From NCBI GenBank assembly GCA_963658085.1, contig CAVKOU010000008.1, positions 8 to 64,007 of the forward strand: 64,000 bases of DNA, in the 5' to 3' direction. This DNA is from a bacterium (GTDB taxonomy: Bacteria; Bacillota; Clostridia; Lachnospirales; Lachnospiraceae). Of the stretch, positions 11,766 to 22,235 are shown one piece after another. Below the pieces are notes generated by a model. It made no database searches. It was not told the origin of the DNA and saw nothing but the letters and a program-made list of their open reading frames with translations. The translations under genes and the position numbers were made by a program. Numbering within the stretch: the stretch's first letter is position 1; each line of letters opens with the position of its first letter.

Positions 11766-12413
11766 ATGAGTACTACAAAAAAACAGCAACTGGCTCTTGC
11801 AGTCATTGATCGTTTAAAAAAAGAATATCCCCACACCACCTGCACCCTTGATTATACAGAGGCCTGGAAATTACTGGTCAGTGTCCGTCTTGCCGCCCAG
11901 TGCACCGATGCCAGGGTAAATGTTGTCGTTCAGGAGCTTTTCGCTAAATATCCAGATATCACTTCCCTTGCCGAGGCAACTCCGGAAGAAATCGAAGAAA
12001 TCGTTCGCCCCTGTGGATTGGGAAAAAGCAAGGCCAGAGATATCAATGCCTGCATGCGGATGCTGCAGGATGAATTTGACGGAAAAGTTCCACGGGATTT
12101 AAATACCCTTCTAAAGCTTCCCGGTGTAGGCAGGAAAAGTGCCAACCTAATTATGGGAGATGTCTACGGCGAACCAGCCATCGTCACAGACACTCATTGC
12201 ATTCGCTTAAGCAACCGCATCGGTCTGGTGAAGGATACCAAGGACCCTAAGAAAGTTGAAATGGCTCTATGGGATATTATCCCTCCAGAGGAAAGTAACG
12301 ATTTTTGCCACCGCATGGTGGATCACGGTCGGGAAGTCTGTACAGCAAGGACCACTCCCCACTGCGAGAAATGTTGTTTGTCAGATCTATGCGAAAGAAA
12401 CGGTGTAGATTAA
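11766..12413 (+). CDS. nth: Endonuclease III
   Basis: HhH-GPD motif LPGVGRKSANLI and the C-terminal FeS cluster CTARTPHCEKCCLSDLC. Confidence 0.92.
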   Translation: MSTTKKQQLALAVIDRLKKEYPHTTCTLDYTEAWKLLVSVRLAAQCTDARVNVVVQELFAKYPDITSLAEATPEEIEEIVRPCGLGKSKARDINACMRMLQDEFDGKVPRDLNTLLKLPGVGRKSANLIMGDVYGEPAIVTDTHCIRLSNRIGLVKDTKDPKKVEMALWDIIPPEESNDFCHRMVDHGREVCTARTTPHCEKCCLSDLCERNGVD

Positions 12414-12431
12414 TCCACACCGTTTCTTTTT
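12397..12431. terminator. Terminator after nth (usable from both strands)
   Basis: Stem gaaacggtgt/acaccgtttc followed by ttttt. Confidence 0.7.
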
Positions 12432-12498
12432 GTAACTATTCAGAATCCTATTTACAAAATAATCTCTACGTAGCTTTTCTTCCTTGATTTCCCAAAAT

Positions 12499-12735
12499 CT
12501 ATTGATTCATATTCTTCAAAGCTTCTACAAATTCCAAATCATCGGCTTTCACTTTCAGATTCGAGCAATACTCTTTTCCCTCCGGTGTCTTTACACTAAT
12601 CTCGATGATAGTTCCCTCCACAATGGCCTCCTGAGATACCGCCTTTAAAAACATAGGGAACTTCGGATGATTTCTCTGAAATGTAGCCAGTCCACTTTGG
12701 ATCTTCTGTAACATTGCTATCTGATTAAAATTCAT
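12499..12735 (-). CDS. Small hypothetical protein (78 aa)
   Basis: SD GAGAGGAG lies 7 nt before the ATG. An extended -10 promoter (TGcTATAAT) is at about 12802-12811. Confidence 0.55.
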   Translation of the reverse strand: MNFNQIAMLQKIQSGLATFQRNHPKFPMFLKAVSQEAIVEGTIIEISVKTPEGKEYCSNLKVKADDLEFVEALKNMNQ

Positions 12736-12949
12736 GAATTTACTCCTCTCATTTCATGTTGGTATATTTCTTTTTCTATGGCTAAAACTTCGCCGGTAAA
12801 AAGATTATAGCATCCCTTTCCCCTTTTGTGTTATTAACTCTCTATAAAAGAAATCCCAGTTTATATTTTCTTAAGTCGCCCTTAAGACTTTTTCGATTTC
12901 TTTAAGAGTTTTAACATACTTTGGACATAATTCTTCTATATACTAATAC

Positions 12950-13103
12950 TCAGATAGTTGATACACAATCAATCAACTATCCCCCCTCATAAAGTTGTAC
13001 TCCTAATAAGGAGTACACTTTACTCTCATTCCTTTAGATAACTATAACAACAACAAGAAACCGTCAGCTTCGGCTGACGGTTTCTTGTTGTCTTTCTTTT
13101 TTT
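12950..13103 (+). ncRNA. Candidate small RNA with three hairpins and a C-rich single-stranded tract
   Basis: Possible promoter TTGGAC (12921-12926), N18, AATACT. Hairpin 1 spans 12953-12981 (10 bp), followed by CCCCCCTC at 12981-12988. Hairpin 2 spans 12997-13016. A 19-bp terminator hairpin spans 13050-13091 and is followed by a T-run on the plus strand. Confidence 0.3.
13050..13103. terminator. Strong bidirectional terminator (also serves the aminopeptidase gene)
   Basis: Perfect 19-bp stem acaacaagaaaccgtcagc-ttcg-gctgacggtttcttgttgt. Confidence 0.85.
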
Positions 13104-13135
13104 AGGAGGAGGAACTCATACGGGATCTTCTCCCT

Positions 13136-14464
13136 CTATAAATTTTCTGATGCAAAAAACTCCCTTGCTAGGCGAATCAAGTATGCCGTATCCTTTGCTC
13201 CCGCGGTCTCATAAGGAGAATGCATCGCTAGTTGCGGCAATCCGATATCTACTGTTCTTACCGGAACCTGAAGAGCCGATAAATTCCCTAAGGTCGACCC
13301 TCCCAAAAGATCTGACCGGTTATGAAAAATCTGATAAGGAATCTCTGCTCTCCGGCATAACATTTTGAAAATCGCTGCAGACACTCCATCGGTGGTATAT
13401 TTTTGATTGGCGCTGTATTTCATTACCACACCTTTATTTAAATATGGGCGATTGGTTGGACAGCTCATTTCCGGATAATTCGGATGCACTGCGTGAGCAT
13501 TGTCCGCCGATAGGATAAAGCTTCCTGCCAAAAGCCTTCGATATTCGCCCTCCGTTATCCCAAAACTCTCGCAAATCCTAAGAAGAGTATCCACAAGAAA
13601 AGTAGACGCCGCTCCCTGTCTGGTTCCACTTCCCACTTCCTCATTGTCAAATACCACATGAACCGGGACACATTCTCCCGTTTCTGAGGATAAAAATCCT
13701 TCCAAAGAAGCATAGGCACATTGCAAGTCATCTAACCTTCCACCGGAGATAAATTCTAAGTTCGCACCCCACTGGCTTCCTTGCATGCGATTATAAAGGA
13801 AAAGGTCACTTCCTAAAATTTCTTCTTCCTTTACGCCGGCAGTTTCTGCTATAAAGGACATAAACTTATGATCTTTACATTCTCCACAGGAATATAATGG
13901 AAGCATGTCTTTTTGAACATTGTATTTATAGCCATCATTTGCATTTCGATTCATATGAATGGCCAAATTAGGAATCAGACACAGATCCCGGTCTACGGAT
14001 ACCAGTTGACTCTTTAGTCCTTCTTTTGTCTGTAGGATGATCCGACCTGCTACGGAAAGGGGACGATCAAACCAGGGAGCCATAAGCATTCCACCGTATT
14101 TTTCCACATTCAACTTTACATAATGGCCTTCCACGCCCATTTCCGGATGTTCTTTAATCTTAAAAGTAGGAGAATCACTATGACTTGCCATAATATGAAA
14201 GCCCCCAAATTTTTTCTCCGGAATACGGAATGCTAAAATAGCAGAATCATTTCTTGTGACAAAATATTTTCCACCAAAATGCAGTTCCCAGGAATCCTTT
14301 TCCGATAGCTTTTCATATCCCTCCTGAAGGAGTCTTGTACACATCTCATTTATACCATGAAAAACACTGGGACTTTTTTCTATAAATCTCAACAATCCCC
14401 GATTAATTTCCTGATCTTCTTTTGTGATCTGCAAATCTTTTTGATCTAAATCCACTGCATTCAT
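13136..14464 (-). CDS. M18-family aminopeptidase
   Basis: Motifs ASHSDSP, FDNEEVGS and SADNAHAVHPNY. ATG at 14464 is preceded by GGGAGA. Confidence 0.85.
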   Translation of the reverse strand: MNAVDLDQKDLQITKEDQEINRGLLRFIEKSPSVFHGINEMCTRLLQEGYEKLSEKDSWELHFGGKYFVTRNDSAILAFRIPEKKFGGFHIMASHSDSPTFKIKEHPEMGVEGHYVKLNVEKYGGMLMAPWFDRPLSVAGRIILQTKEGLKSQLVSVDRDLCLIPNLAIHMNRNANDGYKYNVQKDMLPLYSCGECKDHKFMSFIAETAGVKEEEILGSDLFLYNRMQGSQWGANLEFISGGRLDDLQCAYASLEGFLSSETGECVPVHVVFDNEEVGSGTRQGAASTFLVDTLLRICESFGITEGEYRRLLAGSFILSADNAHAVHPNYPEMSCPTNRPYLNKGVVMKYSANQKYTTDGVSAAIFKMLCRRAEIPYQIFHNRSDLLGGSTLGNLSALQVPVRTVDIGLPQLAMHSPYETAGAKDTAYLIRLAREFFASENL

Positions 14465-14483
14465 CCTATCGTCTCCCTTTCTC

Positions 14484-15626
14484 CTATCGCCAGGTCTCCA
14501 CATCTTCCAAATTCGGATCTGAATGTTCCAACTCCCTGGAGTAACGATATACAATCTCCACTACATCCTCATTCGTCAAAGTTCTCTCATTTTTCACCCA
14601 TCTGGCCATAAGAAATTCCCGAATAAGCCTGAGACTTACAAAGGCAAGATTCGCTTTGTTCAGAGCCTCCCCATCGTAAACCGCACCACAGAAGTAAGTG
14701 GAAATAAAATAAACCAGAATCTGTTCCTGCTGAATATCCCACTGCACAAACTCCTCTTTCACATAGTGATCAAAATCTCTGGACAAAAGCTCATGCTTCT
14801 CAAATCCATTTTCAGGATTATTCTTAAAAAGAAGCACCTCCGCCTCGCAGATAAAATCCTCCCACTCATCTCTTAGAAGCTCCAGGTCGTGAAGCTTTCT
14901 GTATAGTCTTTTGGTCTTTTTATACTCTTTGATGCGACAGACGGCATCTTTTTTCTGCTCTTCCCATTTCTTTGAAAAAAAATCGATGGCCTTATCTCCC
15001 GCATACCGGTCTATAAGCTCCTCACAGGAAAAAAGTTCGCTATTGTTGATCCGTCTCTGAACATCATGAGCCAAGCCCTCCATTAGGAGAAGCCGTACAG
15101 GAATACTAATCTCCCGATTCTGAGCAATATTTAACAGCGCGGTTCTGGTATCTGCCAGAATGAAATAGAGAAAAGGATCGTAGTCATCGTAGGATTCCTC
15201 ACCTTCCTCTTCGTATTCCACAAAAATCACCGGTTCCTGTCGGTTCATGACAATTCTTGCCACCTCCGGACAGGAAAAAGATAATGTCACCTCGCGAATT
15301 CCTTCAAACTCCTCGATATGCCTCGGATAAAGCTTACAGGTCTTGCAAAGAGACTTCTCTCCCAGTTCTGTATACAGATCACAGAGATTCTCCTGATTTA
15401 AAAATGCACATCTTCCATCTTCTGTCCGGCGAAAGGTTCGATCCCACCACCGAACGGAAGTAAGCAAGCGATGACTGATATCCCCGCCTGCCGTCAACAT
15501 GGCATTTCCGTATTTTTTTAAGGTTTTGGCATCGATCACAATCTGCCAGCCTGCACAGCAGGTATCCTCACAATCTCCTGCAATGCACTGAAATTCGCTA
15601 TAATAATCCGGAAATGTATATAGCAT
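14484..15626 (-). CDS. FliB-family (flagellin lysine-N-methylase-like) CxxCxxCC protein
   Basis: The N-terminus FPDYYSEFQCIAGDCEDTCCAGWQIVIDAKTLKKY and the later CAFL...LCDLY...CKTC cysteine clusters are typical of the YkgJ/FliB family. Confidence 0.6.
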   Translation of the reverse strand: MLYTFPDYYSEFQCIAGDCEDTCCAGWQIVIDAKTLKKYGNAMLTAGGDISHRLLTSVRWWDRTFRRTEDGRCAFLNQENLCDLYTELGEKSLCKTCKLYPRHIEEFEGIREVTLSFSCPEVARIVMNRQEPVIFVEYEEEGEESYDDYDPFLYFILADTRTALLNIAQNREISIPVRLLLMEGLAHDVQRRINNSELFSCEELIDRYAGDKAIDFFSKKWEEQKKDAVCRIKEYKKTKRLYRKLHDLELLRDEWEDFICEAEVLLFKNNPENGFEKHELLSRDFDHYVKEEFVQWDIQQEQILVYFISTYFCGAVYDGEALNKANLAFVSLRLIREFLMARWVKNERTLTNEDVVEIVYRYSRELEHSDPNLEDVETWR

Positions 15627-15673
15627 AGTTTCCCTTCCTCTCTCTTCTCTTTCAATACTCTTATTTTTATAGA

Positions 15674-18457
15674 TTATCGTTCGGGAGCCTCCTGGTCGTA
15701 TTGTTGAAATCTTCGATTTCCAAGGCGTACTTCCTTCAAGTGTTCTTGCAGCTTCGGATCCATATGATCCATCAGATAATTTCTAGCGGTCTCCCGCCTT
15801 TTTTCGCTCTCTTCCTTGATCTGACGGTTCACAAATTCTACCTCATCAAAAAATTCTCTTGATGAGATCAAAGAGGCACCACGGCCTCTTGTCACCACCT
15901 GCTCCACTCCATCGGAGGTTACCACGGTCACGTGGTATTTTTTCCCGATATGATGCGTCACTTTTTCGATATATTGATCTGCCGTCTCTGCTTCTTTGGT
16001 AAATACAACATGAATGTTGTGATACTTATACACTTCCAAAGCATCTCCCTCTACTTTGTAAGCATCAAACACAAGGATGACGGCGCATTTTTTAAAGCCC
16101 TGATAGTTGCACAAAATATCCATCAGCTTATTTCTGGCACTCTGGATATTCTCCTTTGCCAGTTCCTTTAACTCTTCCCAGGCGAAGATTACATTATAGC
16201 CATCCACCAGCAGGTATTCTTCTATAGGTTCCGTACTTTTAGGAGTCTCCTTCTGAGCTCCCACAGTTACGGTAGAAGCCTTAGGAGTTTTATGCTCTAC
16301 TTTTCCATAGGTTCGTATAAAGATTTCTTCTAATTCTTTATCTTCCTCATAACTGGTAGAGATAAAATTTTCCCCTCTAGACTTTGGCGCCTGCACATCT
16401 TTTGCATCCTTGGTTTTTACAGACTTCTTTTTGCCTAATTGTTTTTCAATATGCATTTTACCAAAGACTTGATCCCACGGCACTGCATAGCCTGCACCAT
16501 GGGCACAAAAAACGGATCCTGTAGGATTTTCCAGATCTCTTTCCGGATCATAACCTATGGCTTCTATAACTTCCTCCGAATTATGGCAAGGGTAATATCC
16601 CTTATAAGCACAGGTTAAATGTCCCATTCCTCTGGTATATTCCGTAACCTCCATGGCGTATTCACCCATACAAGCCACCGGGGCCTGGCCTGTGATTACG
16701 GTGTGATCTTTCTCTGTCTGAGGCGTATCAAACTCCCCATGCATTCTCTGAATATCCGTCATAGCTCTGCCTACATATTCGGAAGGAATCTCTAACCGGA
16801 AGCTAAAATATGGCTCTAACAAAATATTTTCAGCCTGCATAAGCCCCTGGCGAACTGCCCGGTAGGTAGACTGTCTGAAATCACCACCCTCCGTATGTTT
16901 TAGGTGCGCTTTTCCTGCCACCAGGGTGATCTTCACATCCGTCAAAGCCGAACCTGTAAGAACCCCTTTATGTTCCTTCTCCTCCAAATGAGTTAGGATC
17001 AGCCGCTGCCAGTTCTTATCTAACATATCCTCGCTGCAGGCAGTTTCCAGTACTAATCCCTCGCCAGCCTGAGCCGGTTCCATTTTCAGATGCACTTCTG
17101 CATAATGTCTTAAAGGTTCAAAATGTCCAACACCCTCCACAACATTTCCAATGGTTTCTTTATAGACAATGCTTCCGGGGCCAAATGAAGGTTCCACAGA
17201 AAATCGCTCCATCATCAGGCTTTTTAGCACTTCTTTTTGGACTTCTCCCATAAGCTGTACATGAATTTCAGACAGAGTCTCATTCCATACCACCTTAAGC
17301 ATTGGATCCTCTTCCTCTAACTCTCTGAGATACCCTAGCATCTTATGAGCATCTACATTCTCAGGAAGTTCCACCTGATAATTAATCACCGGCTCAAGCA
17401 CCGGAAGATTAGATTCTTCTTCCATTCCAAGGCCTTGCCCGGGGTAGGTAGCGGTAAGTCCTGTAACAGCACAGATTCTTCCATCAGAAATCTCCTGCAC
17501 CATTTCATATTTTTCACCGGAGTAAATGCGAATCTGATTCACCTTTTCTTCCCAGATATTTCCATCTCTTCCTCGTCCTTGCAACAGATCCTTTACACGC
17601 AAAGTCCCGGAGGTAACCTTTAAGTGAGTCAGGCGCTCGCCCTTTAAATCTCTGGAGATTTTATAAATCTTTCCTCCAAAGCCTTCTTCCTCCAGAGCTT
17701 GTTCCCTTAAGGTTTGATTCCCTAAGTCTTGCTCTCCCAAAGTTTCTTTCTGAAATCTAGGATTTTGGCAAAAAAGTTCAATTCCATCCAACAGTTCCCG
17801 GACGCCCATAAGTTTCAAAGCTGATCCAAAATAGCAGGGAAATACCTGCCGGTTTCTAATAAGTGCGGCTATGGTATCCTGACTGATCTTTCCCTGATCT
17901 AAATATTCCTCCAGGGCATCCTCATGGCAGGTGGCAAGATTTTCATAAAAGTCTCCCTGTTCTTGCCCTTCCATTTCTTCGTGAGAAAATACCGGAAACG
18001 CAAGACAGGATTCCTCCAAATTCTTTTGCAAATCCAGGAGAAGCTCTTCGGGAGCTCTTCCCTCCTGATCCATTTTGTTGATAAACAGAAAAGTAGGAAC
18101 TTTGTAATGTTTTAAGAGTCTCCAAAGCGTCCTGGTATGGCCCTGAACTCCGTCCGCTCCGTTGATTACCAGAATCGCTGCATCTAAAACCTGTAGGGTT
18201 CGCTCCATCTCCGCCGCAAAATCCACATGTCCCGGAGTATCAAGAAGTGTCACGGACAGATCATGTAGCTTAACCTCCGCCTGCTTGGAAAAAATCGTAA
18301 TCCCCCGCTCACGCTCTAAAGCATAGGTATCCAGATAGGCATCCTTATGATCTACTCTTCCAGGTTTGCGAATTTTACCTGTAAGATATAAAATGCTCTC
18401 TGATAAAGTTGTCTTTCCGGCATCTACATGAGCCACCAATCCTACTGTAATGTGCAT
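15674..18457 (-). CDS. TetM/EF-G-like translational GTPase fused to a C-terminal Rae1/YacP-type NYN ribonuclease domain
   Basis: G1 AHVDAGKTT, G3 DTPGH and G4 NKMD, followed by EF-G-like domains II-V. A Lys-rich linker comes next. Nt 15827-16216 then encode YLLVDGYNVIF...VFDAYKV...VVFTKEAETADQYIE...VVTSDGVEQ, the YacP/Rae1 signature. ATG at 18457 follows AAGAGGTG. Confidence 0.85.
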   Translation of the reverse strand: MHITVGLVAHVDAGKTTLSESILYLTGKIRKPGRVDHKDAYLDTYALERERGITIFSKQAEVKLHDLSVTLLDTPGHVDFAAEMERTLQVLDAAILVINGADGVQGHTRTLWRLLKHYKVPTFLFINKMDQEGRAPEELLLDLQKNLEESCLAFPVFSHEEMEGQEQGDFYENLATCHEDALEEYLDQGKISQDTIAALIRNRQVFPCYFGSALKLMGVRELLDGIELFCQNPRFQKETLGEQDLGNQTLREQALEEEGFGGKIYKISRDLKGERLTHLKVTSGTLRVKDLLQGRGRDGNIWEEKVNQIRIYSGEKYEMVQEISDGRICAVTGLTATYPGQGLGMEEESNLPVLEPVINYQVELPENVDAHKMLGYLRELEEEDPMLKVVWNETLSEIHVQLMGEVQKEVLKSLMMERFSVEPSFGPGSIVYKETIGNVVEGVGHFEPLRHYAEVHLKMEPAQAGEGLVLETACSEDMLDKNWQRLILTHLEEKEHKGVLTGSALTDVKITLVAGKAHLKHTEGGDFRQSTYRAVRQGLMQAENILLEPYFSFRLEIPSEYVGRAMTDIQRMHGEFDTPQTEKDHTVITGQAPVACMGEYAMEVTEYTRGMGHLTCAYKGYYPCHNSEEVIEAIGYDPERDLENPTGSVFCAHGAGYAVPWDQVFGKMHIEKQLGKKKSVKTKDAKDVQAPKSRGENFISTSYEEDKELEEIFIRTYGKVEHKTPKASTVTVGAQKETPKSTEPIEEYLLVDGYNVIFAWEELKELAKENIQSARNKLMDILCNYQGFKKCAVILVFDAYKVEGDALEVYKYHNIHVVFTKEAETADQYIEKVTHHIGKKYHVTVVTSDGVEQVVTRGRGASLISSREFFDEVEFVNRQIKEESEKRRETARNYLMDHMDPKLQEHLKEVRLGNRRFQQYDQEAPER

Positions 18458-18466
18458 CCACAACAC

Positions 18467-18501
18467 CTCTTATCTTTTATCTTTTATCTCTTATCTCTTA
18501 T
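18467..18501. repeat. Five tandem heptamers, CTYTTAT (ATAARAG on the coding strand)
   Basis: ctcttat cttttat cttttat ctcttat ctcttat, immediately upstream of the GTPase-NYN SD and start, inside the 58-nt spacer after the PPIase gene. Confidence 0.9.
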
Positions 18502-18515
18502 TTTTTCTCTTATCT

Positions 18516-19262
18516 TTAGACTGTAACCAGATATTTTTCTCGAAGTTCCTCTAATTTCTGACGGTAAGCCACAGCCTGTTTCTTCTCTAAAAGCTCTGCT
18601 TTTACATGTTCCTTTACATCCTCAAATTCCGGGATTACAGCTTCTACCTTCTTTTCAACCTTGATCAGGTGATATCCAAACTGCGTCTTCACAGGTCCGA
18701 TAATGGTTCCGATCTCTCCATTAAATGCGGCCTCCTCAAACTCAGGAACCATCTGACCTTTTCCAAACTCTCCAAGGTTTCCACCTCTTTCTTTAGAAGG
18801 GCATGTAGAATGTTCCATCGCAGCATCCTCAAAAGTCTTGCTTCCTTCTTCGATCTCTTTCTTTACATTTTCAATAGCCTCTAACTCCTCCATCAAAATG
18901 TGCTTTGCGCTGACTCTTGCAGAACTTCCAAAATGTTCTTTATTTAACCGGAAATACTCCTGCAGATCTTCCTCTGTTGCCTCTACTTCTTTTAAGATAA
19001 CAGACACCGCTAGCTGTGACAAAATATCTCTCTTAGTATTCTCAAGAACCATCTTAAAATCATCTGTCTCCTCAAGCTTAAGATCCTCTCCAAGCTTTGT
19101 AAACAAACGCATGTTAATTAACTGCTCCAAATACTGCTGTCTAAACTGAGGATTATTAATATAAGCCTGGTGCTCTCTCGGTGCATTTTTAAGGACTGCA
19201 TCAAGCTGTGCCTCTGTAATCTCTTCTCCTGCAACAACTGCTAAAACTTTGCTCTCACTCAT
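18516..19262 (-). CDS. Parvulin-type peptidyl-prolyl isomerase with no signal peptide
   Basis: Rotamase motifs SAKHIL, GGNLGEFGKGQMVPEFEEAAF and TQFGYHLIKV. ATG at 19262 follows GGAG. The N-terminus is hydrophilic. Confidence 0.85.
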   Translation of the reverse strand: MSESKVLAVVAGEEITEAQLDAVLKNAPREHQAYINNPQFRQQYLEQLINMRLFTKLGEDLKLEETDDFKMVLENTKRDILSQLAVSVILKEVEATEEDLQEYFRLNKEHFGSSARVSAKHILMEELEAIENVKKEIEEGSKTFEDAAMEHSTCPSKERGGNLGEFGKGQMVPEFEEAAFNGEIGTIIGPVKTQFGYHLIKVEKKVEAVIPEFEDVKEHVKAELLEKKQAVAYRQKLEELREKYLVTV

Positions 19263-19477
19263 GATTTTAATCTCCTTGTTTTTCATTTTATAAAAGTTAT
19301 TTGTACCATAACAATACAGGGAGATATGGGTTTCCCACATATTTCCCTGCAACTATCATTTCTTATTATTTTGTAATACCCACCTGCAATCCAAACAATT
19401 CCTGCAAAATTTTCATGTGATTTCTCCATAGAACTTTCCTATAAAATTTTCCCATAAAACTTTGCTATGAAACTTTG

Positions 19478-20875
19478 TTATGCAAGCCTCAATACGTTAA
19501 TTACCAGTACCCATACCATGCTATAGTAAATCACCACTGCCGTCAAGTCATTCACGGTAGAAATCAGGGGACCGGATGCAACTGCCGGATCTACCCCTAC
19601 TTTCGTAAATATAATCGGGACAATGGTTCCAATCAGACTGGATACCGTCATGGCTACCAAAAGAGCCACTCCTACGCAACCGGAGATTGCGAAGGCATTC
19701 AATAAAATATTGATCTTAAATACATAAATGTAAATTCCTATGACAATAAATGCCAGAATTCCTAAGATCAGTCCGTTGGCAAATCCTACTTTTACTTCTT
19801 TCATAATTAAAGAGAAAATCTCTTTGCCGTCTAACTCCTCGTCAATCAATACACGAATGGTAACCGCCAAAGACTGGGTTCCAACATTTCCCGCCATACC
19901 TAGGATCATAGACTGGAAACATACTACCAAAGCAATTTTTGAAACCACGCCCTCAAAGACACCTACCACCGAAGATACTCCCATAGCCAAAAATAACAGA
20001 ATCACTAGCCACGGCAATCTCTTTCGCACACTTTCGCGAAGAGTTTCTTCCAGGTCTTCCTCTTCCGTCAAACCGGCCAACTTCGCGTAGTCTTCACCCA
20101 TCTCGTCATCCACTACCTCTACAATGTCCTGAGAAGTGATAACACCGATAATCTCATCTTCGCTATTTAATACCGGAATGGAATCCTCCGCATAGTCCCT
20201 CAAACGGTCGATACAGTCGCTGATCATCTCATGATCTCGAACATAAGGGTAAGAGGTTGTAATCAAATCCTCTAAATTCACATAGGTCCTGGCTATGATC
20301 AGATCCTTAAGATCCAAAGCTCCGTAAAATTTCCCCTCTTCGTCTGACACATAGATGGTGGAAATATTATCATTATCCTCCGCCTGTGCCACCAGGGACT
20401 TCATGGCTTCTTTGATGGTGAGATTTTTGGTAATCTCAATGAAGTTGGTAGTCATCCTGCTACCGATCTCATCTTCCTCGTAAGACCGGATTAATGCAAT
20501 GTCCTCTCTACTATCTTCATCAATGAGTTTTAGGATCTGCTTTCTGTCATCCTCCTCCAACTCTTCCAGAACATCTACCGCGTCGTCAGAATCCATGTTC
20601 TCTACAACCTTTGCAGCGCTGTGGATATCCAACTCTCCCAGGTAGTCGTCTACATCATCGATATAGGTAAAAATTTCAGACACACGTTCCGCGCCTAAAA
20701 CATGATATAACTTCTTACGATCCTCTTCCGGCAACTGCTGTAAGGCTCCGGCAATATCATTTTCATGATAATTGTCTAACTGAGCCAGTATCTCCTCGTC
20801 CGGCAGATCGCTGCTTAATATGGCCGCCAGTTCTTCCTCATAATTCGGAATGACGATCTCTTCATTATTATCCAT
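19478..20875 (-). CDS. mgtE: Magnesium transporter MgtE
   Basis: MgtE N-domain, tandem CBS domains and a C-terminal 5-TM domain (GNVGTQS, PLISTVNDL). Confidence 0.92.
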   Translation of the reverse strand: MDNNEEIVIPNYEEELAAILSSDLPDEEILAQLDNYHENDIAGALQQLPEEDRKKLYHVLGAERVSEIFTYIDDVDDYLGELDIHSAAKVVENMDSDDAVDVLEELEEDDRKQILKLIDEDSREDIALIRSYEEDEIGSRMTTNFIEITKNLTIKEAMKSLVAQAEDNDNISTIYVSDEEGKFYGALDLKDLIIARTYVNLEDLITTSYPYVRDHEMISDCIDRLRDYAEDSIPVLNSEDEIIGVITSQDIVEVVDDEMGEDYAKLAGLTEEEDLEETLRESVRKRLPWLVILLFLAMGVSSVVGVFEGVVSKIALVVCFQSMILGMAGNVGTQSLAVTIRVLIDEELDGKEIFSLIMKEVKVGFANGLILGILAFIVIGIYIYVFKINILLNAFAISGCVGVALLVAMTVSSLIGTIVPIIFTKVGVDPAVASGPLISTVNDLTAVVIYYSMVWVLVINVLRLA

Positions 20876-21135
20876 AAGGATTTTTCCTCCTTGTCTCTAA
20901 CATTCTTTCTATTAGACACCATGAGGAATCTGTAAACAATACATCTATGTCTACTCTATCAATCCATAAGATTTTAAATCTTATCTGACAAATAAACTTA
21001 TATATCTAGAAGGCTCATATAAGGGATCAGGCCCTATGGCTTCCTGTTCACTGACTCCACCATCGTGGTTCCTACTTCGCCCTCTACTATCGCCACTATC
21101 CATTATATTCACCTACCTCTCGCACTTTTTTCATA
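20876..21135 (-). promoter_or_regulatory. Long structured mgtE 5' leader, possibly an M-box-like Mg2+ sensor
   Basis: The leader is about 260 nt. On the minus strand it contains GGTAGGTGA, AACAGGAA and GCCATAGGGCCTGATCCC. These only partly resemble the M-box blocks GTTAGGTGAGG and GCCATACAGTGCTAAAGCTC. Confidence 0.3.
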
Positions 21136-21142
21136 CGTAGTT

Positions 21143-21171
21143 AGTATACTACTTACCCATATTTGTGTCAA
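21143..21171 (-). promoter_or_regulatory. Sigma-A-type promoter for mgtE
   Basis: TTGACA (21166-21171), N17, TATACT (21143-21148) on the minus strand. Confidence 0.6.
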
Positions 21172-21230
21172 AAATAATCCCTGTTTTTATGAAGATTTAA
21201 CCCATCCATTACATCATTATAAAGAGCATT

Positions 21231-21275
21231 ATAAAAGAAAAATAGCGTTGCAAAAATTAAATATCTTTGCAACGC
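21231..21275 (-). terminator. Terminator after the DUF4340 gene
   Basis: Stem gcgttgcaaa/tttgcaacgc with a U-run on the minus strand. Confidence 0.7.
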
Positions 21276-21326
21276 CATGTCCCTTTGAAAATCATTCTGA
21301 AACAGATTCTTCAGTTACTACAAATT

Positions 21327-22235
21327 TTACTCTGAATCGCCAGAATCACTACTGTCTACGGTTGTCATATTGTTAATAATATCGGTACTAACCTGGTATA
21401 CCAGCTTCGAACCATCTACCATAAGGTAGCGGTTTCCATCTCCGGTCTCTTTTCCGATATAGACGGTAAATGTTTCCTTATCATCTCCGTTTTTGTAAGT
21501 CGCCGTGGCAGTGGTTCTCTCGCTTTCTGTCAAACCATAATTTGACAAGGTCTCATCTGTCACGTGATAATCTACAGGCTCTGTCAAGCTCAGAGCTCCA
21601 AAGCCTCCCGCAAGTTCGCTAAGATCATCCTCGTCTTTATATTTGGTAGTTTCTCCTGCTACTGTAATCTCTACTTTCTTGAGATTTCCACTTCCGATGC
21701 TTGGAACTGTATCATTATCCACAACTTCGCTCAAATCAAATTGCAAACTTCCTGTAAGCGTGCTGTCAATGGTATAAACCTTTTCGCTATCATCGATAGA
21801 AGCGTAATAATTTTCTCCTGTGGCATCTCCCACATGAAGGGTATGTTCTTTATCATCGCTATCGGTATAGGAAATTTCATAGAGAGGACTGGTAAGTCCA
21901 TAATCCTCCAAGTCATCCGGATCCTTAATCTCTCTTACGGCCTCAAGCCCTGTAATGGTTGTCTCCAAACTGTCCAGGGTAGACTGAGCGATAGGGATCT
22001 CGTGATCTGCATCGTAATACCAGGTTCCATCCTCTGATACAAAGGCCATGGTACTGTTGCCATCAGTATAGCTGATCTTTGTCAAGGAGTCGGCATCCAC
22101 TAAATGAATCTCTGCCTCTTTCTCCTCCTCTTCTTTTTTCGTTTCCGCATGTTTATTGTAAGCACTAAGACCAAAGTACACAGCTACCAAGGCCACCAAC
22201 ACTATAAGAAGGAGCATTAATTTATTTTTCTTCAC
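21327..22235 (-). CDS. DUF4340-like membrane-anchored protein
   Basis: N-terminal TM anchor followed by an acidic beta-rich body. It is the last gene of a GldG-type ABC cluster. Confidence 0.6.
   Translation of the reverse strand: MKKNKLMLLLIVLVALVAVYFGLSAYNKHAETKKEEEEKEAEIHLVDADSLTKISYTDGNSTMAFVSEDGTWYYDADHEIPIAQSTLDSLETTITGLEAVREIKDPDDLEDYGLTSPLYEISYTDSDDKEHTLHVGDATGENYYASIDDSEKVYTIDSTLTGSLQFDLSEVVDNDTVPSIGSGNLKKVEITVAGETTKYKDEDDLSELAGGFGALSLTEPVDYHVTDETLSNYGLTESERTTATATYKNGDDKETFTVYIGKETGDGNRYLMVDGSKLVYQVSTDIINNMTTVDSSDSGDSE

Follow-up and report, generated by a model that had tools for sequence, protein, structure and literature searches.

Fusions of an EF-G/Tet-type translational GTPase (trGTPase) to a C-terminal YacP-like NYN domain have been catalogued in ten Clostridiales species, with a suggested role in antibiotic resistance (Atkinson 2015, BMC Genomics, PMC4342817). 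The free nuclease of the same type, Rae1 (YacP) of Bacillus subtilis, is a protein of ~180 amino acids that cuts mRNA on ribosomes that have stalled or collided (PMC12407103, PMC13622287). FliB of Salmonella enterica is a flagellin lysine-N-methyltransferase (PMC8598068, PMC7181671) in which a CX4CX3CC motif binds a [4Fe-4S] cluster (PMC8598068). Among parvulins, PrsA and NifM carry a PPIC-type rotamase after a helical N-terminal part, and PRK02813 describes the M18 aspartyl aminopeptidase family. Proteins related to each of these are encoded side by side at positions 13,136 to 19,262 of the window analysed here, a 64,000-nucleotide stretch of contig CAVKOU010000008.1 from the genome of a gut bacterium of the Lachnospiraceae (assembly GCA_963658085.1; 99% complete): a parvulin, a GTPase::NYN fusion, a FliB-family protein and an M18 aminopeptidase, in that order (Table 1). 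The original prediction, made from the DNA letters, took the four genes for an apparent operon that could form a translation quality-control or ribosome-modification module.

We favour, with a probability of about 70%, a different reading of the grouping: four housekeeping or accessory genes, brought side by side in a single genus, that probably share one transcript and do not constitute one conserved machine. Scanning a single genome for each species, we obtained 313 relatives of the fusion protein and compared 6-kb flanks around the best 80 of these, all Lachnospiraceae-like (the locus of the window and 79 others). The order parvulin–fusion–FliB–M18 occurs in two of the 79 other loci, L001 and L002, both from the same genus as the window. 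These two loci also share its mgtE, GldG-cluster and nth surroundings, and their fusion proteins are 83–84% identical to that of the window and form one clade with it in the fusion-protein tree. In the remaining 77 loci, the flanks of the fusion gene differ widely. Its commonest neighbours are MatE, an ABC ATPase, a Gfo/Idh/MocA oxidoreductase, EamA and an M19 dipeptidase, followed by GreA, a PHP protein, Na/Pi-PhoU, a response regulator and a histidine kinase; each neighbour family is limited to 16 loci or fewer out of the 80. The close outgroup Bariatricus, whose fusion protein is 66% identical to that of the window, has its fusion gene 31 kb away from a FliB–M18 pair; the two genes of the pair are adjacent and share the contig with the fusion. 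The original prediction had stated that a neighbourhood unconserved in related genomes would refute it, and such a neighbourhood is what we found. The adjacency would be a remnant or a chance product of gene-order drift in one Lachnospiraceae sub-clade. Because the grouping is local and recent, it should not be used to annotate the function of any of its members. The arrangement is an ordinary one, restricted to a single genus, and contains one interesting, already catalogued gene.

Two side observations concern these loci. In other Lachnospiraceae, L030, L045 and L050 among them, the fusion gene has phosphate genes (Na/Pi-PhoU, response regulator, histidine kinase and ABC ATPase) within a few kilobases. 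The records of L001, L002 and L076 bear the titles Bacteroidaceae, Parabacteroides distasonis and Paludibacteraceae, respectively; L001 and L002 have Lachnospiraceae-type synteny matching the window, with 82–95% protein identity across nine genes, and L076 has a Lachnospiraceae-type fusion gene. These three bins look mislabelled or contaminated.

Phyletic profiles drawn from 151 genomes, one per genus of Lachnospiraceae, separate the four genes further. The parvulin subfamily of the window is present in 12 of the 151 genera, the FliB family in 75 and the M18 equivalog in 110 (145 at E ≤ 1e-30). The NYN_YacP domain occurs in 134 genera, in ~125 of them as the fusion (an open frame of 860–1045 amino acids); a free NYN gene of Rae1 size (~175–260 amino acids) was found in about nine. 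Apart from the genus of the window, 11 genera have this parvulin, and its gene is not beside the fusion in any of them. Because the profiles are discordant (12, 75, 110 and ~125 of 151 genera), the four genes do not look like an obligate unit.

If the four products did act jointly on nascent chains or ribosomes, as a module dedicated to translation quality control or ribosome modification, they would make up a new bacterial pathway of translation surveillance, with a prolyl isomerase, a nuclease docked on the ribosome, a radical-type protein methylase and a peptidase acting on N termini. The tight co-directional packing ahead of a single terminator is consistent with this idea, and one member is clearly ribosome-directed, with a trGTPase joined to a Rae1-type nuclease in which the four catalytic Asp residues align; moreover, every pairwise adjacency is seen again in a few other genera. 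We nevertheless regard it as very improbable, given that the complete order is limited to one genus, the profiles disagree, the neighbours of the fusion elsewhere have no translation theme and the activities predicted for the M18 and parvulin proteins are generic.

Some of the gene pairs recur outside the genus. Three divergent genera have a co-directional FliB gene after the fusion gene: that of the window, G121, with a gap of 84 nucleotides, and G013, where the pair lies at the edge of a contig. In G142 and G008, a FliB-like gene directly precedes the fusion, and in two Faecalicatena contorta loci FliB lies 1.3–3.8 kb downstream of it. FliB is followed by M18 in the genus of the window and in G130, G049 and L005, and parvulin by the fusion in L012, L020 and L022, where the gaps range from −17 to 77 nucleotides. 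Gene pairs recur above the expectation from random placement, a point that counts against the reading we favour. These cases fall in two clades of the fusion-protein tree, with none in the 44-member Blautia-type clade, and such sporadic recurrence fits a loose, decaying ancestral synteny.

A narrower link, in which the fusion and FliB alone are functionally connected and the parvulin and M18 genes are bystanders, was also considered. FliB would here methylate, for example, the Lys-rich linker, a ribosomal protein or an elongation factor. Adjacency in three divergent genera, together with the two upstream variants, compares with ~0.2 cases expected (~70 genomes × 10 kb / 3 Mb). Co-occurrence points the same way and likewise counts against our preferred reading: the fusion is present in 70 of the 75 FliB-bearing genera versus 55 of the 76 others (raw odds ratio 5.3, p = 0.0009, kinship ignored). 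The independence of FliB from flagellin, described below, also counts in favour of such a link. Set against this, the two genes are adjacent in just ~5 of the ~70 genera that hold both, they are 31 kb apart in Bariatricus, the closest outgroup, and 55 genera have the fusion and no FliB. When kinship was taken into account by phylogenetically independent paired contrasts on a LepA tree covering 147 of the 151 genera, only seven contrasts were supported; FliB changed in the same direction as the fusion in 2.4 of these, in the opposite direction in 0.5 and not at all in 4.1 (median p = 0.63), so that this test had little power and did not reach significance. We consider such a partial module quite unlikely; the possible fusion–FliB connection, slim as its chances are, is the only thread of the module idea worth keeping. 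In its most specific form, non-flagellated Lachnospiraceae would have recruited a FliB-family [4Fe-4S] methyltransferase to place methyl groups on lysines of the translation machinery, working with the fusion, whose Lys-rich tether or a ribosomal protein at the factor-binding site could, for example, be the target. This proposal strikes us as highly improbable; if it were true, fusion–FliB adjacency in divergent genera would mark a real two-gene ribosome-surveillance unit.

Domain calls, made by Pfam and NCBIfam profile searches with family cut-offs, bore out the predicted identities of all four products. The FliB-family protein matches the equivalog model NF038110 at 322 bits (cut-off 85) and has no Pfam match. 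It shares with Salmonella FliB both this model and the N-terminal CX4CX3CC motif (C-IAGD-C-EDT-CC), and we predict that it is a [4Fe-4S]/SAM-type methyltransferase homologue. It differs from Salmonella FliB in having no flagellin-adjacent context: flagellin (PF00669) has no match in the genome of the window, whereas control genomes do match. Because the genome is without flagellin, the FliB homologue here must have a non-flagellin substrate. The same holds more widely. Flagellin was found in 79 of the 151 genera, and its presence is not correlated with that of the FliB family (odds ratio 1.5, p = 0.26); 32 FliB-bearing genera, that of the window included, are without it. FliB-family enzymes are thus common in flagellin-less gut Clostridia, and because their presence does not follow flagellin, the family must have at least one further substrate in these bacteria.

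The fusion protein consists of a Tet/EF-G-like trGTPase (domains G, II, III, IV and V), a Lys/Glu-rich linker of ~110 amino acids and a YacP/Rae1 NYN domain. The latter matches NYN_YacP at 183 bits (cut-off 24.6) and is the sole NYN_YacP domain in the genome. It aligns with B. subtilis YacP (Protein Data Bank (PDB) codes 5MQ8 and 5MQ9) over ~140 residues at 91 bits, with the four catalytic Asp residues in register and the acidic residues of VDGYN, VFDA, ETAD and TSD conserved. Where Rae1 is a free protein, the NYN domain is here tethered to a GTPase of 630 amino acids. The fusion is predicted to be the usual Lachnospiraceae form of the Rae1 ribosome-associated endonuclease, and the EF-G-like body would probably bring the tethered nuclease to ribosomes that are stalled or collided, or dock it there. 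The architecture is the one listed for ten species (Atkinson 2015); here it extends to ~125 of 151 genera and provides the only Rae1-type domain of the genome. In most Lachnospiraceae, this already catalogued fusion to an EF-G-like GTPase is the only form in which the Rae1 nuclease exists. We found no experimental study of it in the literature.

We rejected the fusion as a tetracycline ribosomal protection protein. In the PDB comparison, its GTPase body reaches nearly the same score against TetO (263 bits) as against EF-G (250 bits). In TetM and TetO, the YSPVS motif of domain IV loop III dislodges tetracycline. The TetO/TetM loop YYSPVSTPADFR aligns with AHLKHTEGGDFR in the fusion, with AHLKHTEG in place of YYSPVSTP, so that the resistance loop is missing, and the match to the NCBIfam model tet_protect (430 bits) is below the cut-off of 775. 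Absence of the YYSPVSTP loop sets the fusion of the window apart both from TetM/TetO and from the resistance role suggested for this architecture (PMC4342817).

The parvulin matches PF00639 at 78.6 bits (cut-off 21.7), and its N-terminal part, like that of PrsA and NifM, precedes the rotamase as a helical segment that is weakly SurA_N-like (SurA_N_3 at 22 bits, below the cut-off). It differs from PrsA, PpiC and NifM in falling under every NCBIfam cut-off for them, in its patchy distribution and in an N terminus (MSESKVLAVVAGEEITEAQ) that has no signal peptide or lipobox by inspection. We predict a rare accessory cytoplasmic isomerase. In another genome, two parvulin copies lie head to tail in one frame of 486 amino acids (G082:C23:67419-68852), an arrangement suggestive of tandem duplication or fusion. 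The M18 protein matches PF02127 at 392 bits and the equivalog NF002759, over its full length, at 534 bits (cut-off 356); nothing notable distinguishes it from the M18 aspartyl aminopeptidase family. Its gene is near-universal in Lachnospiraceae and mostly located elsewhere in the genome, and the product is predicted to be a general cytosolic aminopeptidase.

The operon part of the original prediction fared better than the module part, which is unsupported: an apparent operon is reasonable by sequence. Open-reading-frame coordinates and junction sequence confirm four co-directional genes with gaps of exactly 58, 47 and 19 nucleotides, and every spacer is purine-rich with a Shine–Dalgarno sequence at its end. 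Because short same-strand gaps are common in bacteria, this layout is not statistically unusual. When folding energies (dG) were compared with those of shuffled sequence (z), the three internal spacers folded no better than the shuffles (−8 to −11 kcal/mol, z −1.2 to +0.65), in agreement with the reported lack of hairpin terminators between the genes; a minus-strand terminator scan gave just two weak 6-bp matches (17850..17833 and 14846..14831), both within coding sequence. The strong terminator described after M18 was recovered as a perfect 20-bp stem. It is bidirectional, with T-runs on both strands, and is kept in L001 and L002, where substitutions in stem and loop preserve pairing.

Table 1. 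Coordinates of the four genes and associated features in the window
Feature	Position	Strand	Description
Parvulin-type peptidyl-prolyl isomerase	19262..18516	-	248 amino acids; PF00639 Rotamase
GTPase::NYN fusion	18457..15674	-	927 amino acids; PF00009 + EFG_III/IV/C + PF05991 NYN_YacP
FliB-family protein	15626..14484	-	380 amino acids; NF038110 Lys_methyl_FliB
M18 aminopeptidase	14464..13136	-	442 amino acids; PF02127 / NF002759
mgtE, upstream neighbour	20875..19478
Hairpin and U-rich tail between mgtE and parvulin gene	19349..19308	-	CAGGGAAATATGTGGGAAACCCATATCTCCCTG + UAUUGUUAU
Promoter-like site	19314..19285	-	TTGTTA (19314..19309), 16 nucleotides, TATAAA (19292..19287)
Spacer before fusion gene	18515..18458	-	58 nucleotides, purine-rich, unstructured; ~five AUAARAG heptamers; Shine–Dalgarno AAGAGGUG
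Intrinsic terminator	13092..13049	-	Perfect 20-bp stem, GAAG loop; dG −42.1 kcal/mol, z −7.5

At the upstream end, a hairpin with a U-rich tail separates mgtE from the parvulin gene. L001 and L002 share the 42-nucleotide hairpin block with the window at 100% identity, while the flanks have diverged. The block occurs once in the genome; directly after it, the window has a 20-nucleotide insertion. The hairpin probably serves as the terminator of mgtE and overlaps the promoter that follows; it would form the upstream boundary of the unit, and it may have a regulatory role. Transcription would start at a sigma-A-type promoter just after it. Our promoter scan read the promoter-like site there as TTGTTA-18-TAAAAT (9 of 12 consensus matches), and alignment by eye suggests that the −10-like TATAAA is retained in L001 and L002 as an extended TGtTATAAA right after the hairpin. 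Promoter-like sites are not enriched in the region (21, versus 23.2 in shuffles), which makes the scan weak evidence for a promoter upstream of parvulin, and the three spacers contain none.

A single transcript of the four genes, from ~19285 to the terminator at 13049, is likely, and reasonable because the genes share a strand, the spacers are short and unstructured, one strong terminator follows M18 and the TATAAA upstream is conserved. The genes might instead not form one operon, either because separate promoters inside the cluster drive them or because the unit reaches into mgtE by read-through of a leaky hairpin. Minus-strand promoter-like hexamers do lie inside the genes at 19022, 17129 and 14262; however, such sites are no commoner than in shuffles, and spacers of 19–58 nucleotides, unstructured as they are, leave too little room for a terminator plus a promoter. 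Read-through from mgtE gains some plausibility from the weak U-tail of the hairpin (UAUUGUUAU) and from its position just ~37 nucleotides from the parvulin start in L001 and L002. On balance, an arrangement other than one operon seems unlikely, and we retain the four-gene transcript, which would end at the bidirectional terminator.

Several further elements of the region were considered. Between the window and L001/L002, conservation of the spacers is limited to the Shine–Dalgarno and start regions. The AUAARAG heptamers before the fusion gene (18467-18501, minus strand) are missing from the same spacer in L001 and L002 and are found nowhere else in the genome; we rejected them as a conserved regulatory platform on account of their absence from these two relatives, and they look like species-specific slippage rather than a conserved element. 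Neither the hairpin nor the heptamer spacer is a repeated element, as each is unique in the genome. An Rfam scan of 12400-21500 at E ≤ 1 returned no riboswitch or leader, with chance-level matches on the terminator hairpin only. GC content is uniform across the region (0.38–0.46), and we rejected a horizontal-transfer island because GC and skew are both uniform over 9–24 kb.

Downstream of M18, the next gene is an open reading frame of 78 amino acids with a TGcTATAAT box ~75 nucleotides 5′ of it. The intervening 400-nucleotide gap (12736-13135) is highly conserved in L001 and L002. The terminator hairpin and a second one, GTGTACTCC/GGAGTACA, carry changes there that preserve pairing, and the gap contains a G-rich tract and a third hairpin as well; it may harbour a small RNA or a structured 3′ untranslated region.

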